The notes under the pieces were generated by a model. That model saw only the letters and a list, made by a program, of their open reading frames with translations, searched no databases and was not told the DNA's origin. The position numbers and the translations under genes were made by a program. Below are positions 8,244 to 56,520 of a stretch of 56,520 nt of DNA, one piece after another. The DNA is from a virus (lineage: Duplodnaviria; Caudoviricetes): the IMG/VR virus record IMGVR_UViG_3300034072_001152, positions 1-56,520 of that record. One strand, 5' to 3'. Positions within the stretch are counted from its first letter, which is position 1; every line of letters starts with the position of its first letter.

Positions 8244-8834
8244 TTAGGCGGCCCGGCCTCGATGAAGCGGCCTGTCGTGGTTGGGGTGGTATCCGAACCG
8301 ACGCTCGGCGGTTTTTCGAGCCCGGATTGCATCCTCTTTTCGCTTGAACAGCCCTAGATGATAGGCTTTCCCGTGAAGGTTGATTGTGGCCTGCCATTTG
8401 GAGAACTGGCTCGACCAGAACACCCCCATGCAACCACTGCTGTTTCTGCTGTCGCGCGCCCTGTTCCTTAGATTAGAAGATCGATCAACGGACCTTAGGT
8501 TGCACCATCTGTTGTCGGCTGTGTTCCCATTAATGTGGTCGACCTCAATCGGATCTTCGCCGGTCATCATTTTCCAGATAACCCGGTGCTTGAGAAACTT
8601 CTGGCCAAATATCTGGACCTGCCCATACCCGCGACAGCTTGCCGGACTGATGCTGGGTGACACCTCCTGCCCCTCATATTTCTTAGTCCAGTTAGACCAG
8701 TTGATGAGTTGTGTTCGGTTGCCGGGCTTGAACATTTCTACTGGTCGCGGGAGCCAATAGAGCCTCCCCGTCTCAGGGTCATAGCGCATGAGCTTGCGCA
8801 GCAGTTCGGCATCAGGCAGGGGCTTGGCAGCCAT
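8244..8834 (-). CDS. HNH homing endonuclease with AP2-like domain (copy 2)
   Basis: MRYDPETG; KHRVIW..VDHINGNTADNRWCNLR; KWQATI..HLGLF. Confidence 0.9.
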   Translation of the reverse strand: MAAKPLPDAELLRKLMRYDPETGRLYWLPRPVEMFKPGNRTQLINWSNWTKKYEGQEVSPSISPASCRGYGQVQIFGQKFLKHRVIWKMMTGEDPIEVDHINGNTADNRWCNLRSVDRSSNLRNRARDSRNSSGCMGVFWSSQFSKWQATINLHGKAYHLGLFKRKEDAIRARKTAERRFGYHPNHDRPLHRGRAA

Positions 8835-8898
8835 AGAGTCCTCCACATCAGGGTTCTTGGTCAGGGCAGGCCGGGCGTTGGTAGCGCCTCGCCTGCCC
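8832..8898 (-). promoter_or_regulatory. Two-hairpin 5' leader, copy 2
   Basis: GGGCAGGC..GGCG-CTACCAA-CGCC..GCCTGCCC TGACC ... GGAGG actct ATGGCT. Confidence 0.65.
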
Positions 8899-8955
8899 GC
8901 ATTTGGTAGCACGGGTAGCCCTCTGATCCTAGCGCCCGATGAGCGGGATAGGGGG

Positions 8956-9648
8956 TCACGCAGCGGCCCGCCAGCCAAGCCGGTCGCGCCAAGGTCGCCC
9001 CACTTTCAGCCACGAATTGCTGCGCGCTCGGACATAGGGGGCAAAGGCGTCTTTCACCACGCACCCTTCCAAGCCCGCCGCCCACATTTCACCGGCCATC
9101 TCGATCGCCTCATCAACGTGCCAGACTTCCCGGTGAGGCAGGACGCGGACGGCTTGGCGGCCTTCGTCACGGCCACGGCTGCCCGGCCGCCATGTCCACA
9201 TATGTTCGGCGTCTGTCTCCACTGCTAGGGCCAGTGCTTGCAGGCGTTGCTTGCGCTGCCACCACGGCTGAGACGATCCGCCCCGCATCCAATCCTCGAA
9301 GCTGAGGCAGTCGAAAGCGTAGAACGTGCCCGCCTCTCCCCCGAATTTCCATTCGCGCTCGCACCAGGCTTTCGTTGTGGCGAGGGTGTCCGGCCCGTCA
9401 CCGACGCAGAATTCGCCGTCGATCATCAGCGGCTCGCCTGCGATGCGCTCAAATGCCGCAAGCTCGTGAAGGATATGGCCCACACCTTCGATAGGGATAC
9501 CCCCTCGCGTCCATAGTCCGGGCCTGCCTTCCCAGTCGCGGATATACAGCGCGCGGAAACCATCGTGCTTGGTTTCGATCACGGCACCGTCTGGCAGGTT
9601 GCGGCCATCCCATGCACCGACGAGCTGGCAAAGTTCGGGCGGGGTCAT
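8956..9648 (-). CDS. ATP-dependent DNA ligase, nucleotidyltransferase domain only
   Basis: Motifs ETKHDGFR (KxDG), MIDGEF, FYAFD, EGCVVK, WLKV; the ORF stops just after motif V. Confidence 0.8.
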   Translation of the reverse strand: MTPPELCQLVGAWDGRNLPDGAVIETKHDGFRALYIRDWEGRPGLWTRGGIPIEGVGHILHELAAFERIAGEPLMIDGEFCVGDGPDTLATTKAWCEREWKFGGEAGTFYAFDCLSFEDWMRGGSSQPWWQRKQRLQALALAVETDAEHMWTWRPGSRGRDEGRQAVRVLPHREVWHVDEAIEMAGEMWAAGLEGCVVKDAFAPYVRARSNSWLKVGRPWRDRLGWRAAA

Positions 9649-16518: not shown

Positions 16519-17034
16519 TTATTGCCTGCCGGTAAATCCATACTTGCGTTCAGCGGACTTCCTAGCCTTCACTGCGTCCTCGAATTTGGAAAAGCCTCCC
16601 AAGGCTATCTGGACATCATTGACCTTGATGTAGGCGAGCCAGCATTGCCGCTTCGTGCCCCAGCAGACGCCAGTTCGCCCGCTCGTGTTCGAACGGTGCC
16701 GGCCTTGATTCCGCTGATTGACGACTTGAGGAACGTCTCTGAGATTGCGCAGCCGATTGTCGGCACGCTTCCCGTTCCGATGATCTAGCTGCTCAGGCCA
16801 ATATCCGTGAACCATCGCCCATATGACCCGGTGCGCTAGATACGTCTTGTCGAACAACTTCAGTGCTCGATACCCGTGAGCGTCGATCGTCCCGGCCATT
16901 TTCCCGGCGTGCAGGGTGTTCCAGCGCTTCGACCATTTGCCGGTGCGCGGCCGCCAAAACAGCAATCCTGTCTCGGGGTAATAATCCAGCAGTTGACGCA
17001 ACAGTTCTGGCGAGGGAAGTGGCTTCTTAGCCAT
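16519..17034 (-). CDS. HNH homing endonuclease with AP2-like domain (copy 3)
   Basis: LDYYPETG; AHRVIW..LDHRNGKRADNRLRNLR; WLAYI..LGGF. Confidence 0.9.
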   Translation of the reverse strand: MAKKPLPSPELLRQLLDYYPETGLLFWRPRTGKWSKRWNTLHAGKMAGTIDAHGYRALKLFDKTYLAHRVIWAMVHGYWPEQLDHRNGKRADNRLRNLRDVPQVVNQRNQGRHRSNTSGRTGVCWGTKRQCWLAYIKVNDVQIALGGFSKFEDAVKARKSAERKYGFTGRQ

Positions 17035-17125
17035 GCGATGCTCCAATCATCGTTGTGGTCAGGGGCGGGTGAGGTTGCAGCCTTATCCGCCTCGCCTTTG
17101 TGCCGGTTCTGTTCTCATTCGTCAA
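17032..17125 (-). promoter_or_regulatory. Promoter plus two-hairpin leader, copy 3, with a possible LexA box
   Basis: TTGACG-17-CACAAA; GTTC-N7-ATTC at 17106..17120; hairpin, TGACC, CGATG-attggag-CATCG, ATGGCT. Confidence 0.6.
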
Positions 17126-37044: not shown

Positions 37045-37779
37045 ATGGCCCGACCCGGTGCCAGCGAAGAGACACGCATCCGCAAGCTGAAGGATGCGCT
37101 TCAGCGGGCGAGAACTACCCTCACGCCCGGCGAGATGATCGGGCAGCGCGCGATGTGCGACCTGCTCGGCGTCTCATCCATGACACTGCGCGAATGGCTG
37201 GATGACCCCGAGGTCGAAGGGTCTGGGGCCTTCAAGCGCGGCGGCATGGGCAACAAATACGAGTTCGACCCGGTGCTGACGATCTGGGTGCTGCTCTGGT
37301 ATTTTGAGCGCAAGCGTTCGGATGCCGTGCTGGTCAATGCGCGGATGCGCGAGATGGTCGTCGGCGACCGTCTCGGCGATGCCCCGCCTGAAATGACCAT
37401 GCGGGATGTGAAGGAAGCGATGCAGGTCAACCTGCAACTGCTCACCGCCGAGAAGGAAGCGGGCAAGCTGGTCGACGCGACCGAAGCTGCTTCGACCTAT
37501 CGCAATCTGCTGCTGTCGATCCGCGACACCCTGCTCGGCTCGCCGCAGCGGCTGGACCCGACGAATGCCTGGCCGACCGAGTTCCGGGAGACGTTCGACA
37601 ATGCCTTGTCGGATGTGCTCGTCGAATTGCGGAACGCCGCTGAGAAAGCCCTGATCGACCTCGATGCAACTCTCCCCGCACGTCCTGATGCACCGGCTGA
37701 CCGATCTGGCGGCCGGAAAGCGGCTGGCCGACGCGCGGGCACTGGCGCGAAACGAGCTCGAGCTACTTCAGCCGCCTGA
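37045..37779 (+). CDS. Terminase small subunit (Nu1-like)
   Basis: N-terminal HTH (MCDLLGVSSMTLREW..GNKYEFD), GKLVD motif, overlaps the large subunit gene. Confidence 0.75.
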   Translation: MARPGASEETRIRKLKDALQRARTTLTPGEMIGQRAMCDLLGVSSMTLREWLDDPEVEGSGAFKRGGMGNKYEFDPVLTIWVLLWYFERKRSDAVLVNARMREMVVGDRLGDAPPEMTMRDVKEAMQVNLQLLTAEKEAGKLVDATEAASTYRNLLLSIRDTLLGSPQRLDPTNAWPTEFRETFDNALSDVLVELRNAAEKALIDLDATLPARPDAPADRSGGRKAAGRRAGTGAKRARATSAA

Positions 37780-40700
37780 GAAGATCAGCACGGTCGACAA
37801 CGCCGAGAAGTATCGGTTCCTGCCCGGCACGGAAAACGGGGCTATCGTCCGCTACGACCGGATGCGGACGCCTTACAATGTCGGGCCGATGAATTCGCTC
37901 GACGATCCGAAGTGCCAGCTTCTCGTCATGGTGAAGCCTTCGCGATCGGGCGGCACCGCGGTCGCCGAGAACTACCTGTTCAAGCTCGCCAAGTTCGGGC
38001 CGATGACCGGCATTGCTTGGGTGCTCAACAGCGACGAAGCTGTCACTGCCTATGTCCGTAAGGTCGCGAAACCGCTGTTTGATCTGAACCTGGCCGACCG
38101 GGTAAGCAAGGAGCGCGGCGAGGACACTGACTACTACAAGGTCGTCTCGGGTTATCCGATCGAATATCTGGCGAACAAGGATTCGACATGGCGTGACCGC
38201 GAGCCCGGCTACATCCATGTCGACGAGCCGGATGCGGCAGCAAAGCGCTGGGCGGCATCGCCCCGGGTCCAGATCGACGGTCGGCAGAAGCAGCTCGGCA
38301 ACCGGCGCAAGGCGTCGATCATGTCGCACCCGGACTTGGGTTACAGCAGCGGTGTGGCGGCGGCGTTCGAAGATACGAGCCGCGGCATCTACGTGATGAC
38401 CTGCCCGGAATGCGGCGGCCACGCGGCGGCCTATGCGACGAAATACTGGGATGACGTGCCCCAGTTCAAGCTGAGCTGGACGCGGAACGAAGAACTGCCG
38501 ACCGATGAGCGGGTGAAGCTGGCCGAGGCGACCGCCGCCGTGGCCTGCCCGCATTGTGGTGCCGCGCTTGACGATCAGCAGCGCCGCGACATGGTGGATG
38601 CCGCGCTGACCCGCAACGATGCGAGCCGCGACGGCTGGATGCACCGCGGACAGACACTGGATCCCGAGCGCGGGGTGATCGGCGAGCCCGATCCGCACAC
38701 CGCGCACGGCTACTGGGTGCATGGCATCATGCTCAAGACGCAGGACATCGCGAAGCTGGCCCGCGATTACGAGCAGGCGCTCATCAAATTCGAACGCACC
38801 AAGGATGCGGCACAGCTCAAGGAATTCCTGAGCAAGCAGCTTGGGGAGATATTCGAAGGGGCCGCCACCACGGGCGGGGTCAGTGCGCGGATCCTGAAGG
38901 AACGGGTTGCTGAGGCGGCCTATGATCGCGGCTTCTGCCCGCGCGAGGTCGAGTTCATCACGGCGGCGATCGACCCGGGCCGCCGCAAGTTCGATGCCGC
39001 CTTCTGGGGCTGGGACTTGCAGGGCCGGTCATGGCTGATCGACCGGATCACCGAGCGGCAACGGCTGCATGACGGCGGCCAATGGCGCGACATCGACCTC
39101 TACGGCCGGATCGAGGACTGGGACATCATGTGGAGCAAGGTGCTGAACCGCACCTTCCCGATCGTCGGCAGGCCGGACATGGCGATGCCGGTGGCTGTGG
39201 CGCTGCTGGACTCCTCGGACGGTAACGTGACGTGGAAGGCTCGCGAGTTCGCGCGCCGCGCCATGCTTGCTGGCTATGCCTGGGGTGGCTGGCAGAGACT
39301 GAAGCTCATCAAGGGGCAAGCCGGCAAGCGGCCCGCCCTGCCCGAAGCGCCGACGCGGATCGACAAGGATGAGCGCGGGCAACAGGTCGAGCCGGTGCTG
39401 ATGGAATACCGCCTCGGGGTCGATGCCTTGAAGGCGCAAACGCTTGAACGTCTGGCAACACCGGAAGGTGAGCCGGGAGCCTGCCGCTTCCCGCGCGAGA
39501 TCGAACCGCACTACCTTGAGGAATACTTCGGGGAGACGCTGATCGACGGCAAATGGGTCCGCAACGGCCCGAACGAGACTTTGGATTGCTTTGATATGGA
39601 AACGGAAATCCTCACTGAAAACGGCTGGGTTCCGTTCCCTGAGCTTGATCGGGCTTGCCGTGTCGCAACGGTCAATCTGAAGAGTCGTGAAATCGAATAT
39701 CAATGGCCGACAGAATACATCGCCCGTCGCCATAGCGGCGACATGGTGAAGCTGGCCGGTCGCCGCATCGACATTCTGGTGACGCCCAATCACCGCATGG
39801 TGACGATGAAGCCCGAATGGGATCAGTCAAAGCAGGGCTGGAACTTTGATGTCGAGCCCCAGATCACCTTGGCGAAAGATTTGACCATCAGGCATTCGCT
39901 GCTGATGTCGGCGAAGTGGCGCGGATCGCAAGTTGAACAGATCACTGTGCCTAAGTTTATCAGCGCACAGGGGCGCGCCGTCTCTAAGAGTGTCGATGTC
40001 GACGCGAAAGCGCTTGCCGCTCTGACAGGATGGTTTGTCGCTGAGGGTTGTCTGGCGCAGTATCGCAGCAAAACGCAGGGTAATATGCGCCGCCGTGTTC
40101 TGATCTACCAGAACGAGGGCCCAAAGGCCGATATGATCCGCGCGGTCTTGGCGGCACTGCCTTGGCATTTTGTTGAGTCTCGCCGCGGCGAAGGCGTGCT
40201 TTTCACTGCGTCGTCTGCGCAACTGCACGACTTCTTGCAGGACTGCGGCGCCGGTGCTGCGTTCAAGAGGGTGCCGCAATGGATCAAATCGGCCGAGCCG
40301 GAAATCATTTCCGCGTTCATTGATGCCGCAATCGCTGGCGATGGCTGGAGTCAGACCAAGGCGGGCCAAAGGGTGCATCGCACTTACGCCACCGTGAGCA
40401 GGCAACTGGCTGACGATATGCAGGAGCTTTTCATCAAGATTGGCTGCGCTGCAAACATCAAGGTGCGTCGTGGCGGGAAGCCGTGCAAGATCGGCAGGGC
40501 TGACGGTGAGTGCCTAGACCAGTATCATGTCTCCGAATGCAAATCCGCTACCGCCGCTCTTGATACGAGCGTGGGCGGCAAGCGACGGTTTCTGGGCGAG
40601 ACGGTCCAGTATCACGGCATGGTCTATTGCGTGACGGTGCCAAACGGGACGCTGATCTGTCGCCGCAATGGCAAGAGCTTCATCGCTGGCAACTGCCACG

Positions 40701-40870
40701 CTTACGCCGAGGCGGGGCGCCAACTGCTCGCGCCCGACCGGGCCGACATAGACTGGAAGAACAGCCGCCCGGCTTGGGCGACACCGATTTCACTGAGCAA
40801 GCAGGCCGAAGAAAGCGCGCCTGCCGAGGGCCCGAATATCTTCGACGCCTTCGCAGCTCTCAATGACTGA
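37664..40870 (+). CDS. Terminase large subunit (lambda gpA family) containing an intein
   Basis: RTPY, KPSRSGGT Walker A, VDEPD Walker B, CPECG/CPHCG, TAAID, NETLD-C nuclease motif; start uncertain. Confidence 0.92.
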   Translation: MQLSPHVLMHRLTDLAAGKRLADARALARNELELLQPPEKISTVDNAEKYRFLPGTENGAIVRYDRMRTPYNVGPMNSLDDPKCQLLVMVKPSRSGGTAVAENYLFKLAKFGPMTGIAWVLNSDEAVTAYVRKVAKPLFDLNLADRVSKERGEDTDYYKVVSGYPIEYLANKDSTWRDREPGYIHVDEPDAAAKRWAASPRVQIDGRQKQLGNRRKASIMSHPDLGYSSGVAAAFEDTSRGIYVMTCPECGGHAAAYATKYWDDVPQFKLSWTRNEELPTDERVKLAEATAAVACPHCGAALDDQQRRDMVDAALTRNDASRDGWMHRGQTLDPERGVIGEPDPHTAHGYWVHGIMLKTQDIAKLARDYEQALIKFERTKDAAQLKEFLSKQLGEIFEGAATTGGVSARILKERVAEAAYDRGFCPREVEFITAAIDPGRRKFDAAFWGWDLQGRSWLIDRITERQRLHDGGQWRDIDLYGRIEDWDIMWSKVLNRTFPIVGRPDMAMPVAVALLDSSDGNVTWKAREFARRAMLAGYAWGGWQRLKLIKGQAGKRPALPEAPTRIDKDERGQQVEPVLMEYRLGVDALKAQTLERLATPEGEPGACRFPREIEPHYLEEYFGETLIDGKWVRNGPNETLDCFDMETEILTENGWVPFPELDRACRVATVNLKSREIEYQWPTEYIARRHSGDMVKLAGRRIDILVTPNHRMVTMKPEWDQSKQGWNFDVEPQITLAKDLTIRHSLLMSAKWRGSQVEQITVPKFISAQGRAVSKSVDVDAKALAALTGWFVAEGCLAQYRSKTQGNMRRRVLIYQNEGPKADMIRAVLAALPWHFVESRRGEGVLFTASSAQLHDFLQDCGAGAAFKRVPQWIKSAEPEIISAFIDAAIAGDGWSQTKAGQRVHRTYATVSRQLADDMQELFIKIGCAANIKVRRGGKPCKIGRADGECLDQYHVSECKSATAALDTSVGGKRRFLGETVQYHGMVYCVTVPNGTLICRRNGKSFIAGNCHAYAEAGRQLLAPDRADIDWKNSRPAWATPISLSKQAEESAPAEGPNIFDAFAALND
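39587..40693 (+). mobile_element. Intein (369 aa) with LAGLIDADG homing endonuclease
   Basis: Starts CFDMETEILTENGW, block B VTPNHRM, LTGWFVAEG and FIDAAIAGDG motifs, ends VYCVTVPNG..IAGN followed by Cys+1. Confidence 0.93.
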
Positions 40871-51326: not shown

Positions 51327-51445
51327 TGGGCACGATCTGGCCTGACGGGAAGCCGCTGCTGGAACAGCCCTACAAGCTGAAGCAGGCATTCGCGATCATC
51401 AGCCAGGTCGAACACAAGGCGAGGAAGCAGCCCGGTGCCGCTTGA
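51155..51445 (+). CDS. -1 frameshift extension (gpGT-like)
   Basis: A AAA AAC heptamer at 51155..51161; the -1 frame is open to TGA 51445 and encodes WPDGKPLLEQPYKLKQAFAII. Confidence 0.75.
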   Translation, partial: KKLIVAALRVFCPEVVGEQAIFWPPNDPSPVCIERPCDLGSGEWLELVSIRQSCVSMMGTIWPDGKPLLEQPYKLKQAFAIISQVEHKARKQPGAA

Positions 51446-52142
51446 TTATCGGATCGAGATTCCACCGGGCGGCTTCGTCACGCTGGGCGGCGAGTTGAAG
51501 AAGCTCGCCGACCGGCTCATTCTTGATGTCAGCGACCGGGCCGCGACCAAGCTGAAATCGCAGGTCCGGCAAGATATGGCTGGTGCCGGTCTGGGCCGGC
51601 TCGGTCAGGCGATCACCAGCACATCGGATAAGGCGCGCGGCGGCACGATCTATCGCCGCGGCGGTGTCAGCCGGGCATCGGGCATCGTCTATATCCGCAC
51701 CAAGGCGCCGCGCACTGTCGGTGCGATCATCTCCTACACCGAGGGCGCGGAAATTACCCCGAAGAAGGGGCGCTGGCTCTACTTCCCGACTGATCAAGCG
51801 CAGCGTCTGGTCGGCAAGGGCAAGGGCCGCCGCCGTCTGGTTCCGGCCGATTGGAAGTCGAGCGGCATGGAGGCCAAGCTAGGCCCGCTGTTCCGGATCC
51901 GTGGCAGCAGCGGCAACCCGTTGCTGGTCGTCCGCAATGTCGGCGTCAGCGAGGTCGGTGCGCGCGGTGGCAGGCCGCGATCGCTCACGAAGTCGGGCCG
52001 CCCGCGCAAGGGTGACAGGACTGCCGAACTGGTCGTCGTGTTCGTTGGCATCCCGCGCACCAGTCGCAAGGTCCGCGTCAATGTCCGACAGCGCGCGTTT
52101 CAGGCGGCGCAGCAGGCGACGGCCGAATTGCGAGGGGTCTAG
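51435..52142 (+). CDS. Basic neck/tail completion-like protein
   Basis: 235 aa, very basic; GAEITPKKGRWLYFPT motif. Confidence 0.65.
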   Translation: MPLDYRIEIPPGGFVTLGGELKKLADRLILDVSDRAATKLKSQVRQDMAGAGLGRLGQAITSTSDKARGGTIYRRGGVSRASGIVYIRTKAPRTVGAIISYTEGAEITPKKGRWLYFPTDQAQRLVGKGKGRRRLVPADWKSSGMEAKLGPLFRIRGSSGNPLLVVRNVGVSEVGARGGRPRSLTKSGRPRKGDRTAELVVVFVGIPRTSRKVRVNVRQRAFQAAQQATAELRGV

Positions 52143-52175: not shown

Positions 52176-52415
52176 ATGAAAAGGGTCATTCTTGTCGCCG
52201 CCATATTGCTCGCTGGTTGCGGGCAGAGTGCAGGTGAAAAAGCTGAGGCTGAGTATCGCATCGCTCGCGAGAGCGGGGTGACAAGCGATCAAGCCTGCGA
52301 ATTCGAGACGCGGATCAGAGACGCATACCTGTCTGATGAGAACCGCGAAAAATACCAGCGTTGGCGGATAGCTGCGGCCACGAGCTGCAATGAGGCGGCG
52401 CTTGAACGGCTTTAG
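52176..52415 (+). CDS. Small lipoprotein (moron; superinfection exclusion candidate)
   Basis: MKRVILVAAILLAGC lipobox. Confidence 0.7.
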   Translation: MKRVILVAAILLAGCGQSAGEKAEAEYRIARESGVTSDQACEFETRIRDAYLSDENREKYQRWRIAAATSCNEAALERL

Positions 52416-52591
52416 TCGAACGCCTTGCTGACTATCCTGCGGATTGCCTCAGGTCGATTTGGACTGTCGGGTTGAGCGCCCCGCCAAGCATCAATGCTGG
52501 CAAGTAAGGCGCTGTCGACGCGCACGGTGATCGGGGTATTAACCCCAGTTGCAGGCCGACCACGCTTTTTTGTGACACCAGTAATTGACAT
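52412..52591 (-). CDS. Ribbon-helix-helix (CopG/Arc-like) regulator, 59 aa, absent from the ORF track
   Basis: MSITGVTKKRGRPATGVNTPITVRVDSALLASIDAWRGAQPDSPNRPEAIRRIVSKAFD. Confidence 0.8.
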   Translation of the reverse strand: MSITGVTKKRGRPATGVNTPITVRVDSALLASIDAWRGAQPDSPNRPEAIRRIVSKAFD

Positions 52592-52613
52592 GATGAAATT
52601 GTGATGCCATAAA
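52570..52613 (+). promoter_or_regulatory. Sigma70 promoter with direct-repeat operator
   Basis: TTGACA (52585)-17-CATAAA (52608); repeats TTGTGACACCA (52570) and TTGTGATGCCA (52599). Confidence 0.75.
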
Positions 52614-52617
52614 AGGC

Positions 52618-52686
52618 GGGCCGGATCAAGAGGTGGTGCTCTTGTCCGGCCCTAACCAATCCGATCAACAGGAGATCGTTATGGCT
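52618..52686 (+). promoter_or_regulatory. Two-hairpin 5' leader, copy 5
   Basis: GGGCCGGA-t-CAAGAG-gtggtg-CTCTTG-TCCGGCCC TAACC aatc CGATC-aacagga-GATCG tt ATGGCT. Confidence 0.75.
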
Positions 52687-52734
52687 GACGTGACCAATAC
52701 CGCGCTTTGCGCGCTCCGCAAGGGAGGCGCATGA
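52681..52734 (+). CDS. Leader peptide (17 aa) coupled to the RAMP gene
   Basis: MADVTNTALCALRKGGA; its stop overlaps the ATG at 52731 (ATGA). Confidence 0.5.
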   Translation: MADVTNTALCALRKGGA

Positions 52735-53309
52735 TGGCGGCCTCCAAGACCATTGAGCTTCCCGCTCTGAAGATTCAGACGCTTTCGCTCATGCTGGTGG
52801 GCGATAGCCCGCTGATCGTCCACGCTTGGTCCGAGAAGGCCAAGCGCCAGATGCTCGACAAGCAGATGAAGAAGGCGACCAAGGCCAAGGAGGCGAAAGA
52901 CCCTGAGGCCGATTACGAGGCTTGCTTCTATCGCACGGAAACGGGGGGCTACGGCTTCCCGGCCATTGGGGTGAAGGCGGCGATGGTGTCGGCCTGCCGG
53001 TTCGTGGACATGAAAATGACCGAGGCTCGCGGGGCCTTTCACATCGACTGCGAGATGTTGTCGGTAATCGGCGACCCTCGCCCTCGCGAGGACATGGTGC
53101 GGGTCGGTATGGGCACCGCTGACATTCGCTATCGTCCGGAGTTCCCGCAGTGGAAAATTCCGGTCGACATCAAGTTCAACGCTGGCGTCATCAGTGCCGA
53201 GCAGATCGCAAACCTGCTTAACACGGCGGGCTTCGCCATCGGCATTGGCGAGTGGCGACCGGAGCGCAACGGTTCCTATGGCCGCTTTCATGTCGGGGGT
53301 GGCGAGTGA
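52731..53309 (+). CDS. Stand-alone Cas7/RAMP-like RNA-binding protein
   Basis: First strand LVGDSPLIVH, FPAIGVKAAMVSAC helix, RYRPEF..W..V.I.F, C-terminal Gly-rich loop AGFAIGIGEWRPERNGSYGRFHV; no other cas genes. Confidence 0.75.
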   Translation: MMAASKTIELPALKIQTLSLMLVGDSPLIVHAWSEKAKRQMLDKQMKKATKAKEAKDPEADYEACFYRTETGGYGFPAIGVKAAMVSACRFVDMKMTEARGAFHIDCEMLSVIGDPRPREDMVRVGMGTADIRYRPEFPQWKIPVDIKFNAGVISAEQIANLLNTAGFAIGIGEWRPERNGSYGRFHVGGGE

Positions 53310-53776
53310 TGATCTACAAGTGGAAAGAAGGCGCGCGGGTCAGCATTGACCCGCAAGCCGCTGGCGAAGAAATCGAGCGGGTCCGAGTTGCTCAGAATGG
53401 ACGGCTGCTCGCCCCTGATCTTGTCGAGAGTGCTCGCGACCCGTCATCGCCTCTGCATCCGGCTTTCGAGTGGGATGACGCAACGGCTGCCGAAAACTGG
53501 CGGGTCGAGCAGGCAAGCTACTTGATCCGGTCGATTGAGGTCATCGTCGAGCGGCAGGAAGAAGAAAGGCCGATCCGGGCGTTCGTCTCGGTGAAGCGCG
53601 ATGAGGACCGCTCCTATACGAGCGTTTCGCACGCGATGGCTGACCCCGATCTTCGTCAACAGGTGCTCGCTGGGGCGCTGAAGGAATTGGAAGCGTGGCG
53701 GGTTCGCTACGCAGAGCTTGTCGAACTGGCGAAGGTTTTCGCCGCGATCGACGAGGCTCGGGCCGCCAATGAATAG
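53309..53776 (+). CDS. Partner protein of the RAMP/pentamer-array cassette
   Basis: 155 aa, TGATG overlap; VESARDPSSPLHPAFEWDD..AA..WR..QA..LIRSI motif. Confidence 0.8.
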   Translation: MIYKWKEGARVSIDPQAAGEEIERVRVAQNGRLLAPDLVESARDPSSPLHPAFEWDDATAAENWRVEQASYLIRSIEVIVERQEEERPIRAFVSVKRDEDRSYTSVSHAMADPDLRQQVLAGALKELEAWRVRYAELVELAKVFAAIDEARAANE

Positions 53777-53785
53777 GGCTCGAAA

Positions 53786-53945
53786 CATGGCAGGCGTGGC
53801 AGGGCTAGGCTCGGCAGGGCTCGGCCGGGCGTGGCGCGGCTGGGTGAGGCATGGCAGGCGAGGTTAGGCTCGGCGCGTCCTAGTAGGGCAAGGCATGGCG
53901 GGGCAAGGCATGGCGAGTTGAGGCTCGGCAGGCTTGCCTAGGCAG
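53786..53945 (+). ncRNA. GGY-NN pentamer array, two guide-like units
   Basis: 12 pentamers (53793..53852) and 14 pentamers (53857..53926) delimited by GGCA tetramers at 53789, 53853 and 53927; 23 of 26 begin with GGY. Confidence 0.8.
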
Positions 53946-53964
53946 TCAGCCACTAAGCAACCCG

Positions 53965-53997
53965 GAGGGGGTCACGAAAGTGGCCCCCTCTTTATTT
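53965..53997 (+). terminator. Intrinsic terminator closing the cassette
   Basis: GAGGGGGTCAC-gaaa-GTGGCCCCCTC-TTTATTT. Confidence 0.85.
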
Positions 53998-54017
53998 GGA
54001 GAAACGGAAAGAAGAGA

Positions 54018-56520
54018 ATGTCACAATCATCTGTTTTTCCGATTTTTTTGCGAGCCGAATACCGCGATAGCACCGCGCTTCAACGCTTTCAGAGCGATGC
54101 GCAGCGGGCTGCGCAGGCCGCCAAGCGCGAGTTTCAGGGGGTGAAGGCGGCGCTCGACGCGGCTCTGACACGACCTCGCACCAGTGGCGGCAGCCTAGAC
54201 CTAGGGGTTGATGAGCTTCGCCGGGCAGCGCAGGCTCAGCAGGAGGTCGCTGCAGCGGCGAGACAGGTTGCCGAGGCGACCCGGCGAGCAGCACAGGCCA
54301 GCGGGAGCTTTGACGCCTCGCTCTCCCGGTCGACCCGTGCGGCCTTCGAGTATGCGAACGCGCAGGAACGCTCGTCGCGCGAGATGCTTGAGCAGCTCTC
54401 TCTTCTCGACCGCGTGCAGGCTGAGCTAAATCAGGTCGCCAGCGCGTCGGATGCGGTCACGGCAGCGAACCGACGCGGCACCTCGGTATCGGGGCAACAG
54501 CGGCAGGGATTGCAACAGCTCTCGTTTCAGCTGAATGACGTGGCGACGCAATTCGCCCTTGGAGCGAGCGCCACCCAGATTTTCGCGGCGCAGTCGGGTC
54601 AGGTTATCCAGGCGTTGCAGACGATGACGGGAGGCACCAGCCGCCTAGCTGCCTTCCTCGGTGGGCCTTGGGGGTTGGCACTCACCTCGGCCGCGATCGT
54701 CGTTTCACCCTTCATCGGCAGGCTGTTCGAGGCGGGTGAGGCCAGCGACAAGATGAGCAAGGCGCTCGATCAGGCCCGGTTCGCGAGTGACGGCATGGCC
54801 TCGGCTCAGAGCATCCTCGGCGATGTCATCGATCTGACGACCGGCAGGATGAAGGACCAGACCAATCAGGCGGTCATACTCGCGCGGGCTCAGCTGCAGC
54901 TGGCCGAGGTCCGGGCCCGGGTTGCAGCGAATGAAGCGCGCACCACGTTGCAGGGTGCTGCACGGCGGACCACCCAAGTCGATATTGCATCGGCTGGCAC
55001 TGGAAGTTTCGGCGGCACCGTGTTCCGCAGTGTCCGGCGCCCGACTATCTCAGCAGCCGCGGCGCGACAGGCCCTTGCAGGTGATACGCAGGGGGCCCTC
55101 GATGCGCTGAAGGAAGCGGTCGACACGGGCAAGACGACTGCGGCGATCTACGCCGAGACGGCAACGGCGATCGCAAACCTCGGTGCCGAGACTGAAAACA
55201 TGAAGCGGTTCGGCGACGCGCTGCGGGCCTTGGAAGGCGACCAGAGTGCTCTGCGCCAGTTCATCCGTCCTGACAGATCTCGCACGCCGCGCGGTGGCGA
55301 TGAAGCCAAGCGCCAGGCACGGGAGGCGGAACGGCTGGCCACGTTCGGCGAGCAGGCGGCGGAGAGTATCGCCCGGTTGAACGAGCGGTTCGACGAGCAG
55401 CCCCGTTTGATCGATCAGGCATCGCAGGCAACGCGGCAGCTCGATGCGCTGATTTCCGACCTCAGCGAGCGCAAGCCCGCCAACTTCGAGGCTCTGATCG
55501 CCGATGCGGAGAAGGCCAAGGCGACCGTGCAAGCGGCGCTGACCCGTCCCTTCGACGACTTGCGGCGCGAGAGCGAGGAACGCCTTGAGATTGAGCAGCT
55601 GCTCGCGCAAGGCCGGGAAGATGAGGCCGTCGCCTTGCAAGAGGTCTTGCGCCTGAAGCGGCAGATCGGCGGCGTTACCGAAGAGCAGCGCGCCGAGGTC
55701 GAGGCGATCGTTCGGGCCGAAGCGGCCAAGACCCGTGAGCTTCGGGTGCAGCAACAGCTGTTCGCCGCACAACTCGAAGTGATCGACACGGTGCAGCGCT
55801 CGCTCACCGATTTGCTGAGCGGTCGCTCGACCGATTTCTTCGGGGATTTCCGGCAAGCCCTTCGCGACCTGCAAGGGCAACGGCTCTTCGAAAACATCTT
55901 CGGAGAGGCCTTCAGGGGCATCCGGGATGAGCTTCAGGCCAACACGCCGCTTGGCAGGGCGAACAAGGCGCTGGCGGACGAGACGAACAAGGCGGCGCAG
56001 ACCGTCAGTGTTGCGAAAGATGCGCTCGCTGATTTGGCCGACGCTTTTGCTCAGGGTGCAGCCCGCATTCGCAATGGTGGGGCCGCAAACGACAACGGCT
56101 TTGCAGCGGCGTTCGGCAACGGTGCTTCGGTAGGAGCCGGTGCGCTAGGGCTGGGCGGTGCGGCGCAGCGCTTCTTGAACAGCGCCCGAGGTAACGAAAT
56201 CCTTGTCGAAGCCAAGATCGCCCGCAACTCAGTGACCGATCTTGCCAAGCTCATCAGCACGGGCATCGGTGACAGCATCGGAGAGCAGCTCGAGGATGTG
56301 CTGGGCACACGCTTTGCGCAGGTCCTTGGCGACACCATCGGCGGCTTTATCGCCGGCAAGACGCTTGGCGGCACCACGGGCGGCATCTTGGGCGCGCTTG
56401 AGGGCCTGACCGGAAGCATCAAGGGGCTTGAGGGCCTTTCCGAGACGTTCGGCGCTTTCCTGAACGGCTCGGCCATCGGTTCGCAGGTTTCCGGCATCAG
56501 CAAGGCTCTCGGCATCGGCG
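54018..56520 (+). CDS. Tail tape measure protein, N-terminal part (about 1236 aa in total across the origin)
   Basis: Open from ATG 54018 to the contig end; LSFQLNDVATQFALG..QIFAAQSGQV lambda-type TMP motif; Ala-rich helical. Confidence 0.88.
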   Translation, partial: MSQSSVFPIFLRAEYRDSTALQRFQSDAQRAAQAAKREFQGVKAALDAALTRPRTSGGSLDLGVDELRRAAQAQQEVAAAARQVAEATRRAAQASGSFDASLSRSTRAAFEYANAQERSSREMLEQLSLLDRVQAELNQVASASDAVTAANRRGTSVSGQQRQGLQQLSFQLNDVATQFALGASATQIFAAQSGQVIQALQTMTGGTSRLAAFLGGPWGLALTSAAIVVSPFIGRLFEAGEASDKMSKALDQARFASDGMASAQSILGDVIDLTTGRMKDQTNQAVILARAQLQLAEVRARVAANEARTTLQGAARRTTQVDIASAGTGSFGGTVFRSVRRPTISAAAARQALAGDTQGALDALKEAVDTGKTTAAIYAETATAIANLGAETENMKRFGDALRALEGDQSALRQFIRPDRSRTPRGGDEAKRQAREAERLATFGEQAAESIARLNERFDEQPRLIDQASQATRQLDALISDLSERKPANFEALIADAEKAKATVQAALTRPFDDLRRESEERLEIEQLLAQGREDEAVALQEVLRLKRQIGGVTEEQRAEVEAIVRAEAAKTRELRVQQQLFAAQLEVIDTVQRSLTDLLSGRSTDFFGDFRQALRDLQGQRLFENIFGEAFRGIRDELQANTPLGRANKALADETNKAAQTVSVAKDALADLADAFAQGAARIRNGGAANDNGFAAAFGNGASVGAGALGLGGAAQRFLNSARGNEILVEAKIARNSVTDLAKLISTGIGDSIGEQLEDVLGTRFAQVLGDTIGGFIAGKTLGGTTGGILGALEGLTGSIKGLEGLSETFGAFLNGSAIGSQVSGISKALGIG
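56394..56520. repeat. Terminal duplication identical to 1..127
   Basis: Exact identity. Confidence 0.95.

Follow-up and report, generated by a model that had tools for sequence, protein, structure and literature searches.

VIPR (Viral Interference Programmable Repeat) systems are described in three 2026 preprints (10.64898/2026.04.26.720920; 10.64898/2026.04.26.720927; 10.64898/2026.10.15.759431). In these systems a Cas7-like protein and guide RNAs made of five-base repeats silence the DNA of rival phages (10.64898/2026.04.26.720920). In the solved Vipr protein of Escherichia phage SUSP1 (PDB 36pp), a carrier of VIPR type II, residues H17, R138, D177, W178, R179 and K33 hold both guanines, the pyrimidine and the target backbone (10.64898/2026.04.26.720927). 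Phages of Enterobacteriaceae are reported to target the vipr genes of rivals while avoiding their own, and satellites of SUSP1 carry a tape-measure gene like that of their helper (10.64898/2026.10.15.759431). The cassette treated here lies at 52412-53997 of the Caudoviricetes record IMGVR_UViG_3300034072_001152, whose full 56,520 nucleotides (nt) form the window and supply all coordinates. It is a further instance of the already published VIPR kind, but not of type II. The fuller reading, that of a moron-like VIPR system in the tail-gene region of a complete temperate phage, with an array RNA that would guide Vipr filaments to matching DNA, is considered quite probable; that the guides are aimed at kin is held at about even odds.

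Vipr homology and comparison with described effectors

Judged by sequence comparison, the vipr product of the cassette is a homologue of the solved SUSP1 protein. As a single sequence it matches PDB entry 36pp_D ('SUSP1 Vipr protein') at an E-value of 9.2e-7, and a 52-sequence profile matches the same entry at 1.3e-13 over profile positions 21-193, nearly the full length. BLASTP against SUSP1 agp039 gives 24% identity (E 1e-12), and the match on the SUSP1 genome has an E-value of 4.6e-16. An earlier note on this DNA had correctly compared the cassette with the VIPR architecture, and its statement that the cassette was otherwise undescribed is overtaken by the three bioRxiv preprints. The residues that contact GGY and the target backbone are aligned throughout, H30, K46, R134, E173, W174 and R175 corresponding to SUSP1 H17, K33, R138, D177, W178 and R179, with a single substitution of Glu (E173) for Asp (D177); R134 and R175 are invariant among the 52 homologues. 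The steric residues E71/M72 are not retained, I78/G79 being aligned there. The C-terminal GIGEWRP...GRF loop, noticed earlier as a RAMP-type Gly-rich loop, aligns with the SUSP1 G-loop.

The predicted fold is RAMP/Cas7-like, as the earlier note had expected for 52731-53309. The AlphaFold model (pLDDT 91.5, pTM 0.83) has 78 Foldseek matches at E <= 0.001, the best with an E-value of 2.7e-6, a TM score of 0.56 and a probability of 1.00, and all matches listed are subunits of CRISPR type III or type VII effectors or Cas7-11; the library, dated to 8 April 2026, listed no Vipr entry. The protein falls into no Pfam, NCBIfam or PADLOC family, and no Pfam RAMP family is reached at E <= 1. The Vipr family is a sizeable one, with matches at E <= 0.001 in 7902 of 7948 candidate clusters; 4314 representatives are left at 50% identity, and homologues occur in 159 isolated-phage records.

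Beyond a homologous protein of about 190 amino acids (aa) with the GGY-contacting residues retained, the cassette shares with SUSP1 VIPR a two-gene operon accompanied by same-strand GGY-NN guides of 9-16 units, a phage-borne setting with neither cas genes nor a CRISPR array, and, in the clade of the window, a wobble-aligned code with a 1-nt skip. It differs in that its Vipr has only the 24% identity given above, its partner protein is unrelated to Vap1, its fixed triplet is mostly GGC in place of GGT, and a divergent RHH gene is present. The guides of the window carry neither individual promoters nor 3' pseudoknot tails; they are strung head to tail, offset by a GGCA step, and a single 5' hairpin leader precedes them. 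In type II systems (SUSP1, P. fulva) an invariant 3' pseudoknot tail on each guide goes with a Vap1 partner, and neither is found here. The arrangement resembles the 'staggered' vrRNA arrays named in the legend of fig. S18 of one preprint, in which guides abut and the register changes by one base at each boundary (10.64898/2026.04.26.720920).

In predicted fold the protein also resembles the Cas7-family subunits of CRISPR type III (Csm3/Csm5, Cmr4/Cmr6) and the Cas7 of type VII (Foldseek TM about 0.5), but the guide period of the window is 5 nt with a gapped code, whereas theirs is 6 nt with contiguous pairing. The repeat-spacer array and cas operon of class 1 CRISPR-Cas are lacking. In agreement with the earlier note, no match to Cas1 or Cas2 was found in the phage genome, Cas6 not having been searched for, and there were no CRISPR-like repeats, the pentamer array being the sole direct-repeat family.

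Guide array and the one-base-skip code

At 53793-53808, GGY recurs in 5-nt phase in 10/10 consecutive units; maxima in 50 whole-window shuffles are 4-7 and the minus-strand maximum is 5. The array matches itself at lag 5 with a score of 0.45, compared with 0.22-0.34 at lags 1-4, and the pentamer repeat is not due to chance. The single periodic non-coding tract of about 150 nt proposed earlier keeps its 5-nt periodicity and resolves into two guides, about 138 nt together, and a boundary motif. Guide B follows guide A head to tail (Table 1), a 4-nt GGCA step shifting the phase between them, and neither has a 3' tail of its own. Three fixed triplets of guide B are degenerate (GTC, AGT and GTT); degenerate GTC and GTT units are common in relatives, where they also stand inside guides with perfect targets. 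The hairpin that precedes the array covaries: across 20 close-clade sequences 90.7% of its cells are paired, compared with 78.3% in shuffles (reached by 0/500), 13 cells are changed on both sides (0/500 shuffles), and compensatory changes occur in 4/7 pairs.

The same construction recurs in the relatives surveyed (66 loci, 312 guides), referred to below by locus handles such as L018. The modal guide has 9-11 units and the fixed triplet is GGC in 54% and GGT in 25%. Gaps between consecutive guides are exactly 4 nt in 164 of 246 cases, 120 of these reading GGCA, so that the register steps back one base at each such boundary. Some relatives have very long arrays (L032, 5317-7859, with 33 detected guides; L044, 2248-2987), SUSP1 being described with 1-4 guides. 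In Mycobacterium phage Pippy (L012) a GGY-NN array at 2140-2336 lies upstream of vipr, overlapping gene 47, called a 'hypothetical protein', and the end of gene 46; the coding-sequence calls overlapping the array are probably guide RNA genes. Within the window, a weaker GGY run in 5-nt phase (7/10, 51563-51612, plus strand) lies inside the coding open reading frame (ORF) 51435-52142; since 1/50 shuffles reached 7, this run may be chance.

Adjacent arrays, which the earlier note had predicted for homologous loci, are a regular feature. All of the 10 bacterial-genome loci have GGY-NN arrays on the strand of the gene and none on the opposite strand, the hosts including Sphingomonas, Novosphingobium and Sphingopyxis as well as metagenome-assembled genomes labelled Acidobacteriaceae, Rhodospirillaceae and Actinomycetes. 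Such same-strand arrays are found in 55 of 67 viral loci as well, and 5 of the 12 loci without one end within 520 nt of vipr. The closest relative, with a Vipr 95% identical, has no guide in common with the window. GGY is thus conserved and NN unrelated among relatives. The idea that each protomer holds GGY and presents NN, put forward in the earlier note, agrees with what the VIPR preprints report (10.64898/2026.04.26.720920; 10.64898/2026.04.26.720927) and draws support from the homology to SUSP1 Vipr, the RAMP/Cas7-like predicted fold and the arrays of homologous loci.

The code was tested by scoring 290 guides of 8-16 units on 2.17 Mb of compared DNA with the arrays masked. With a 1-nt skip between NN pairs, 14/290 guides reach an NN match of at least 90%, four of them perfect. 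In the controls, skips of 0, 2 and 3 nt and the reversed guides, the guides at or above 90% number 0, 2, 1 and 0, and the perfect matches 0, 0, 1 and 0. The published 1-nt-skip code holds among the relatives compared. The targets include vipr itself, at two sites (Table 1) where foreign guides lie on conserved codons in the wobble register. The carriers' own vipr copies are recoded at these sites, with Arg AGG in place of CGN and with amino-acid changes, and score 16/22 in L018 and 13/16 in L001/L016 against the guides that match the window. This resembles the published vipr-targeting vrRNAs: guides of the relatives lie on conserved vipr codons in the wobble register and fit the vipr of their own carrier less well. 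It is unlike them in that the published account concerns phages of Enterobacteriaceae and mostly solo guides carried by phages without vipr, whereas the phages here are vipr-positive, have hosts of Sphingomonadaceae type, and the predicted target is a tape-measure-like gene (10.64898/2026.10.15.759431). Other matches link relatives to one another: three L022 guides converge on L002 (15/16, 19/20 and 25/28), guides of L020 and L058 match each other's genomes (23/24 and 19/20), and L015 guides match the tape-measure-like gene of L026 and L018.

Table 1. Features of the cassette and of its predicted target gene (positions in the window)
Feature	Position	Strand	Details
RHH repressor gene, 59 aa	52412-52591	-	Pfam RHH_1 E 0.0085 (below cut-off); phrog_4738 'transcriptional repressor' E 2.2e-6
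Putative promoter	52585-52613	+	TTGACA 52585-52590, 17-nt spacer, CATAAA 52608-52613
Leader hairpin/palindrome	52618-52652	+	8-nt arms GGGCCGGA/TCCGGCCC, 100% complementary
Upstream ORF, 17 codons	52681-52734	+	AGGAG-ATGGCT start; ATGATG overlap with vipr
vipr, Cas7-like RAMP protein (predicted fold), 192 aa (191 aa from second ATG)	52731/52734-53309	+	phrog_4652 E 5.6e-33
vipr site coding DYEACFYRT	52911-52937	+	L059 guide 0 17/18; L059 own site 14/18
vipr site coding EDMVRVGMGTA	53088-53120	+	L018 guide 1 22/22; L001/L016 guide 0 16/16
vap-like partner gene, 155 aa	53309-53776	+	translationally coupled, TGATG overlap with vipr; phrog_15946 E 1.3e-23
Array leader	53758-53788	+	7-bp hairpin across vap stop codon, then GAAACAT; covariation and fold
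vrRNA guide A	53789-53852	+	GGCA step and 12 GGY-NN units; NN gt ag ta tc ag tc cg gt gc tg ga at
vrRNA guide B	53853-53926	+	GGCA step and 14 units; NN ga ta tc gc ct ag aa at gg aa at ga ga tc
Closing GGCAGGC boundary, short non-repeat tail, intrinsic terminator	53927-53997	+	12-bp stem 53964-53991 and T run
Tape-measure-like gene, 1236 aa	54018-56520, through terminal repeat to 1335	+	Pfam TMP_2 E 5.5e-4, below cut-off
Guide B, best own-genome match	54023-54064	-	22/28 NN; antisense, codons 3-16 of tape-measure-like gene, skip base at wobble position
Guide A, best match in all compared DNA	55418-55453	-	18/24; same tape-measure-like gene, antisense, wobble register

Predicted targets and rival explanations

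Both guides find their best matches in the tape-measure-like gene that follows the cassette and reads across the record ends, ORF 352-1335 being its C-terminal part. The score of guide B is reached by 0/1000 guides with permuted unit order. The homologous site is also its best match in L015 (23/28), L018/L083 (21), L093 (20) and L092 (18), and that of guide A is the best match in L092 (17) and in L083, L085, L086 and L093 (16). Further tape-measure-like homologues, in nine viral and four genome loci, have both sites only in weaker versions. The phage's own copy of the B site departs from an ideal target at three amino acids, and further by Leu TTG where CTN would fit and Arg CGA where AGR would. 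A parallel is found in L022, whose guide 2 scores 25/28 on the opening codons of the gene behind the L002 cassette and 21/28 on L022's own copy, in which two Leu codons have switched from CTG to TTG. Because of these near matches in the own gene, the codon differences of the own copy and the L022 parallel, the guides are read as aimed at a related allele of kin. That both are directed at two sites in a closely related tape-measure-like allele of a kin phage or satellite has about an even chance of being correct; a satellite is a plausible target since those of SUSP1 carry a tape-measure gene like the helper's.

By the proposed mechanism, transcription of the operon would start at the putative promoter, cover vipr, the vap-like gene and the array, and end at the terminator, probably under the control of the divergent RHH repressor. 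From the array RNA would come guide A with 12 pentamer units and guide B with 14. By analogy with the family, Vipr protomers would polymerise along each guide, one per unit, holding GGY and presenting NN, and the filament would bind double-stranded DNA that fits the successive NN pairs when one base is left out between each and the next, blocking its transcription. The phage's own tape-measure-like copy would escape through its amino-acid changes and its Leu/Arg codon-family switches, and the cassette would exclude or disarm close competitors.

Several observations weigh against this reading. No target of either guide at 90% or above was found in the collections sampled, the searches covering samples of viral, genome and metagenome contigs. 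The exact patterns of guides A and B have 0 hits in viral contigs; units 2-13 of guide B have 0 in genome and 0 in metagenome contigs, and units 2-11 of guide A have 0 in metagenome contigs. With up to 3 mismatches allowed, guide A was found in 0/401 and 0/3 of the genomes searched and guide B in 0/121 and 0/3. The 18/24 of guide A is marginal when taken alone, 30/1000 permuted guides reaching that score. The counts behind the code include duplicate prophage records, such as L001/L016, L004/L020 and L033/L035, so that fewer than 14 independent cases stand behind the 14 guides; these duplicates are in the controls as well. The other seven of the 12 viral loci without an array have the most distant Vipr proteins (43-47% identity) and room downstream, and the GGY detector was negative there. 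The partner is unrelated to SUSP1 Vap1 (hhalign probability 0.07%).

A lone viral-contig hit of guide A units 1-9, in L082, was judged to be chance, because the match is 19/24 overall, only 1/6 of the further bases match and the skip base falls off the wobble position.

Across all compared DNA, both guides match best in the phage's own gene, the guide B site starts 26 nt past the end of the terminator, and L022 has the same layout. These are the features to be expected if the guides acted on the downstream tape-measure-like gene of their own phage, for example by keeping late tail genes off in the lysogen or by timing them, with imperfect matches tolerated or tuned. Such a role is unlikely. 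Each own site has six mismatched NN bases, and according to one preprint perturbed NN pairing abolished silencing and no guide matched its own contig at 80% or above (10.64898/2026.04.26.720920). Among relatives, moreover, guides find perfect matches in foreign vipr genes and score less on the vipr of their own carrier, and the L022 guide fits the foreign copy better than its own. Could the cassette instead serve the host, as a moron for superinfection exclusion that the prophage would express to keep out incoming relatives, and not for the phage's own competition? The phage is temperate by its integrase, the cassette, within a late operon, is equipped with a promoter, a repressor and a terminator of its own, and programmable defence against lambda has been shown (10.64898/2026.04.26.720920). 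Host protection differs from silencing of kin by the phage in timing only, and SUSP1 is described as using VIPR during lytic infection (10.64898/2026.10.15.759431); it is given a low probability.

Finally, the array may be no guide RNA at all. It could be a repeat bound by protein or a G-rich structure, acting at the DNA level, or else a remnant in decay, with the protein working without it. The degenerate triplets of guide B would fit such an origin, and no RNA sequencing run is listed as containing the cassette sequence. However, the array always lies on the strand of the gene, close relatives share GGY but have unrelated NN, relatives' guides match foreign genes under the 1-nt skip far above the controls, and degenerate triplets occur within guides that have perfect targets. 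A non-guide array is therefore regarded as very improbable, and guide-based silencing of kin is retained as the preferred reading.

Cassette layout, phage context and significance

All parts of the self-contained unit recognised in the earlier note are present, in the order divergent RHH gene, promoter, leader hairpin, vipr, coupled 155-aa gene, GGY-NN array and terminator. The unit lies within the tail-gene region, and its insertion before the tape-measure gene, also proposed there, is borne out by relatives: the flanking genes are directly adjacent, without a cassette, in the kin phages L084, L088 and L091, and in L026 the cassette sits one gene further upstream, from which it follows that the cassette is an insertion.

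The start codon of the RHH gene overlaps the -35 hexamer of the vipr promoter, and an RHH homologue stands upstream on the opposite strand in 4/10 genome loci and 18/67 viral loci. A consensus promoter scan found none at 52585-52613, because its rule requires T at the last -10 position, which is A here. The promoter is conserved in three relatives (L015, L018 and L026), TTGACATG being invariant and the -10 region retained, and the ribosome site is conserved in three relatives alongside promoter and hairpin. The leader hairpin appears in both the minimum-free-energy and the centroid folds (fold z -4.35), and in L018 and L026 its stem persists although the letters differ; the hairpin is possibly an RNA 5' structure or an operator for RHH. 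Between the conserved leader and vipr lies a variable slot, which holds unrelated ORFs in L018 (9516-10001) and L026 (9666-9998) and only the 17-codon ORF in the window and in L015. The short ORF had been taken for a leader peptide. It does exist, and since full ORFs, of about 160 aa in L018 and about 110 aa in L026, begin at the same AGGAG-ATGGCT start, the sequences compared make it the probable remainder of a variable cargo gene.

The partner gene stands beside vipr in 10/10 genome loci and 56/67 viral loci. It is present in 31 isolated-phage records, and in mycobacteriophages it adjoins vipr. Its product matches no Pfam, NCBIfam or PADLOC family, its profile finds nothing below E 0.058 among PDB sequences, and its atlas neighbours are viral clusters without names. 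With the partner model (pLDDT 88.4), the best Foldseek match has an E-value of 0.1 and the best VIA-align match a Z of 5.6, the rows being winged-helix domains and single long helices; the modelled likeness to a winged helix and coiled coil is weak, a lead only.

The phage record is complete, with a 127-nt direct terminal repeat (1-127 and 56394-56520), the class of direct terminal repeats in IMG/VR and a CheckV estimate of 100%. It encodes replication genes, terminase, portal, protease, a major head protein and an integrase, the last matching phrog_1 (E 5.7e-52), a sign of a temperate lifestyle. No tRNA was found in the window, and no Rfam family reached its gathering score there, two sub-threshold rows falling in 52400-54100. 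The terminase large-subunit ORF (37664-40870, plus strand, 1068 aa) has internal stretches, residues 639-733 and 975-1012, matching PHROGs annotated as thymidylate synthase and ribonucleotide reductase; these could be an inserted intein-like element. Two HNH endonuclease genes, both of phrog_99, lie in the early region on the minus strand (8244-8978 and 16519-17046).

The picture of what VIPR is remains unchanged by this cassette. Its clade may, although this is less likely than not, represent a VIPR architecture beyond the main texts of the preprints, combining GGCA-concatenated guides, a covarying 5' hairpin in place of tails, a partner family common to mycobacteriophages and possibly made of a winged helix and a coiled coil, an RHH switch, tape-measure-like targets in kin, and escape through Leu/Arg codon families. 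If true, Leu/Arg codon-family switching would be a synonymous escape route absent from the accessible part of the published 'wobble-proof' argument; six-fold degenerate codons may offer synonymous escape from a guide that skips the wobble base. The discovery of VIPR is only months old, and well-anatomised members outside Enterobacteriaceae help to map its range. The compact two-guide operon with its clear boundaries is suited to asking how guides without tails are cut and capped. The gapped code and guides against the VIPR of rivals hold also in high-GC alphaproteobacterial phages, and the cassette suggests that guides may be aimed at structural genes of close kin or of satellites.

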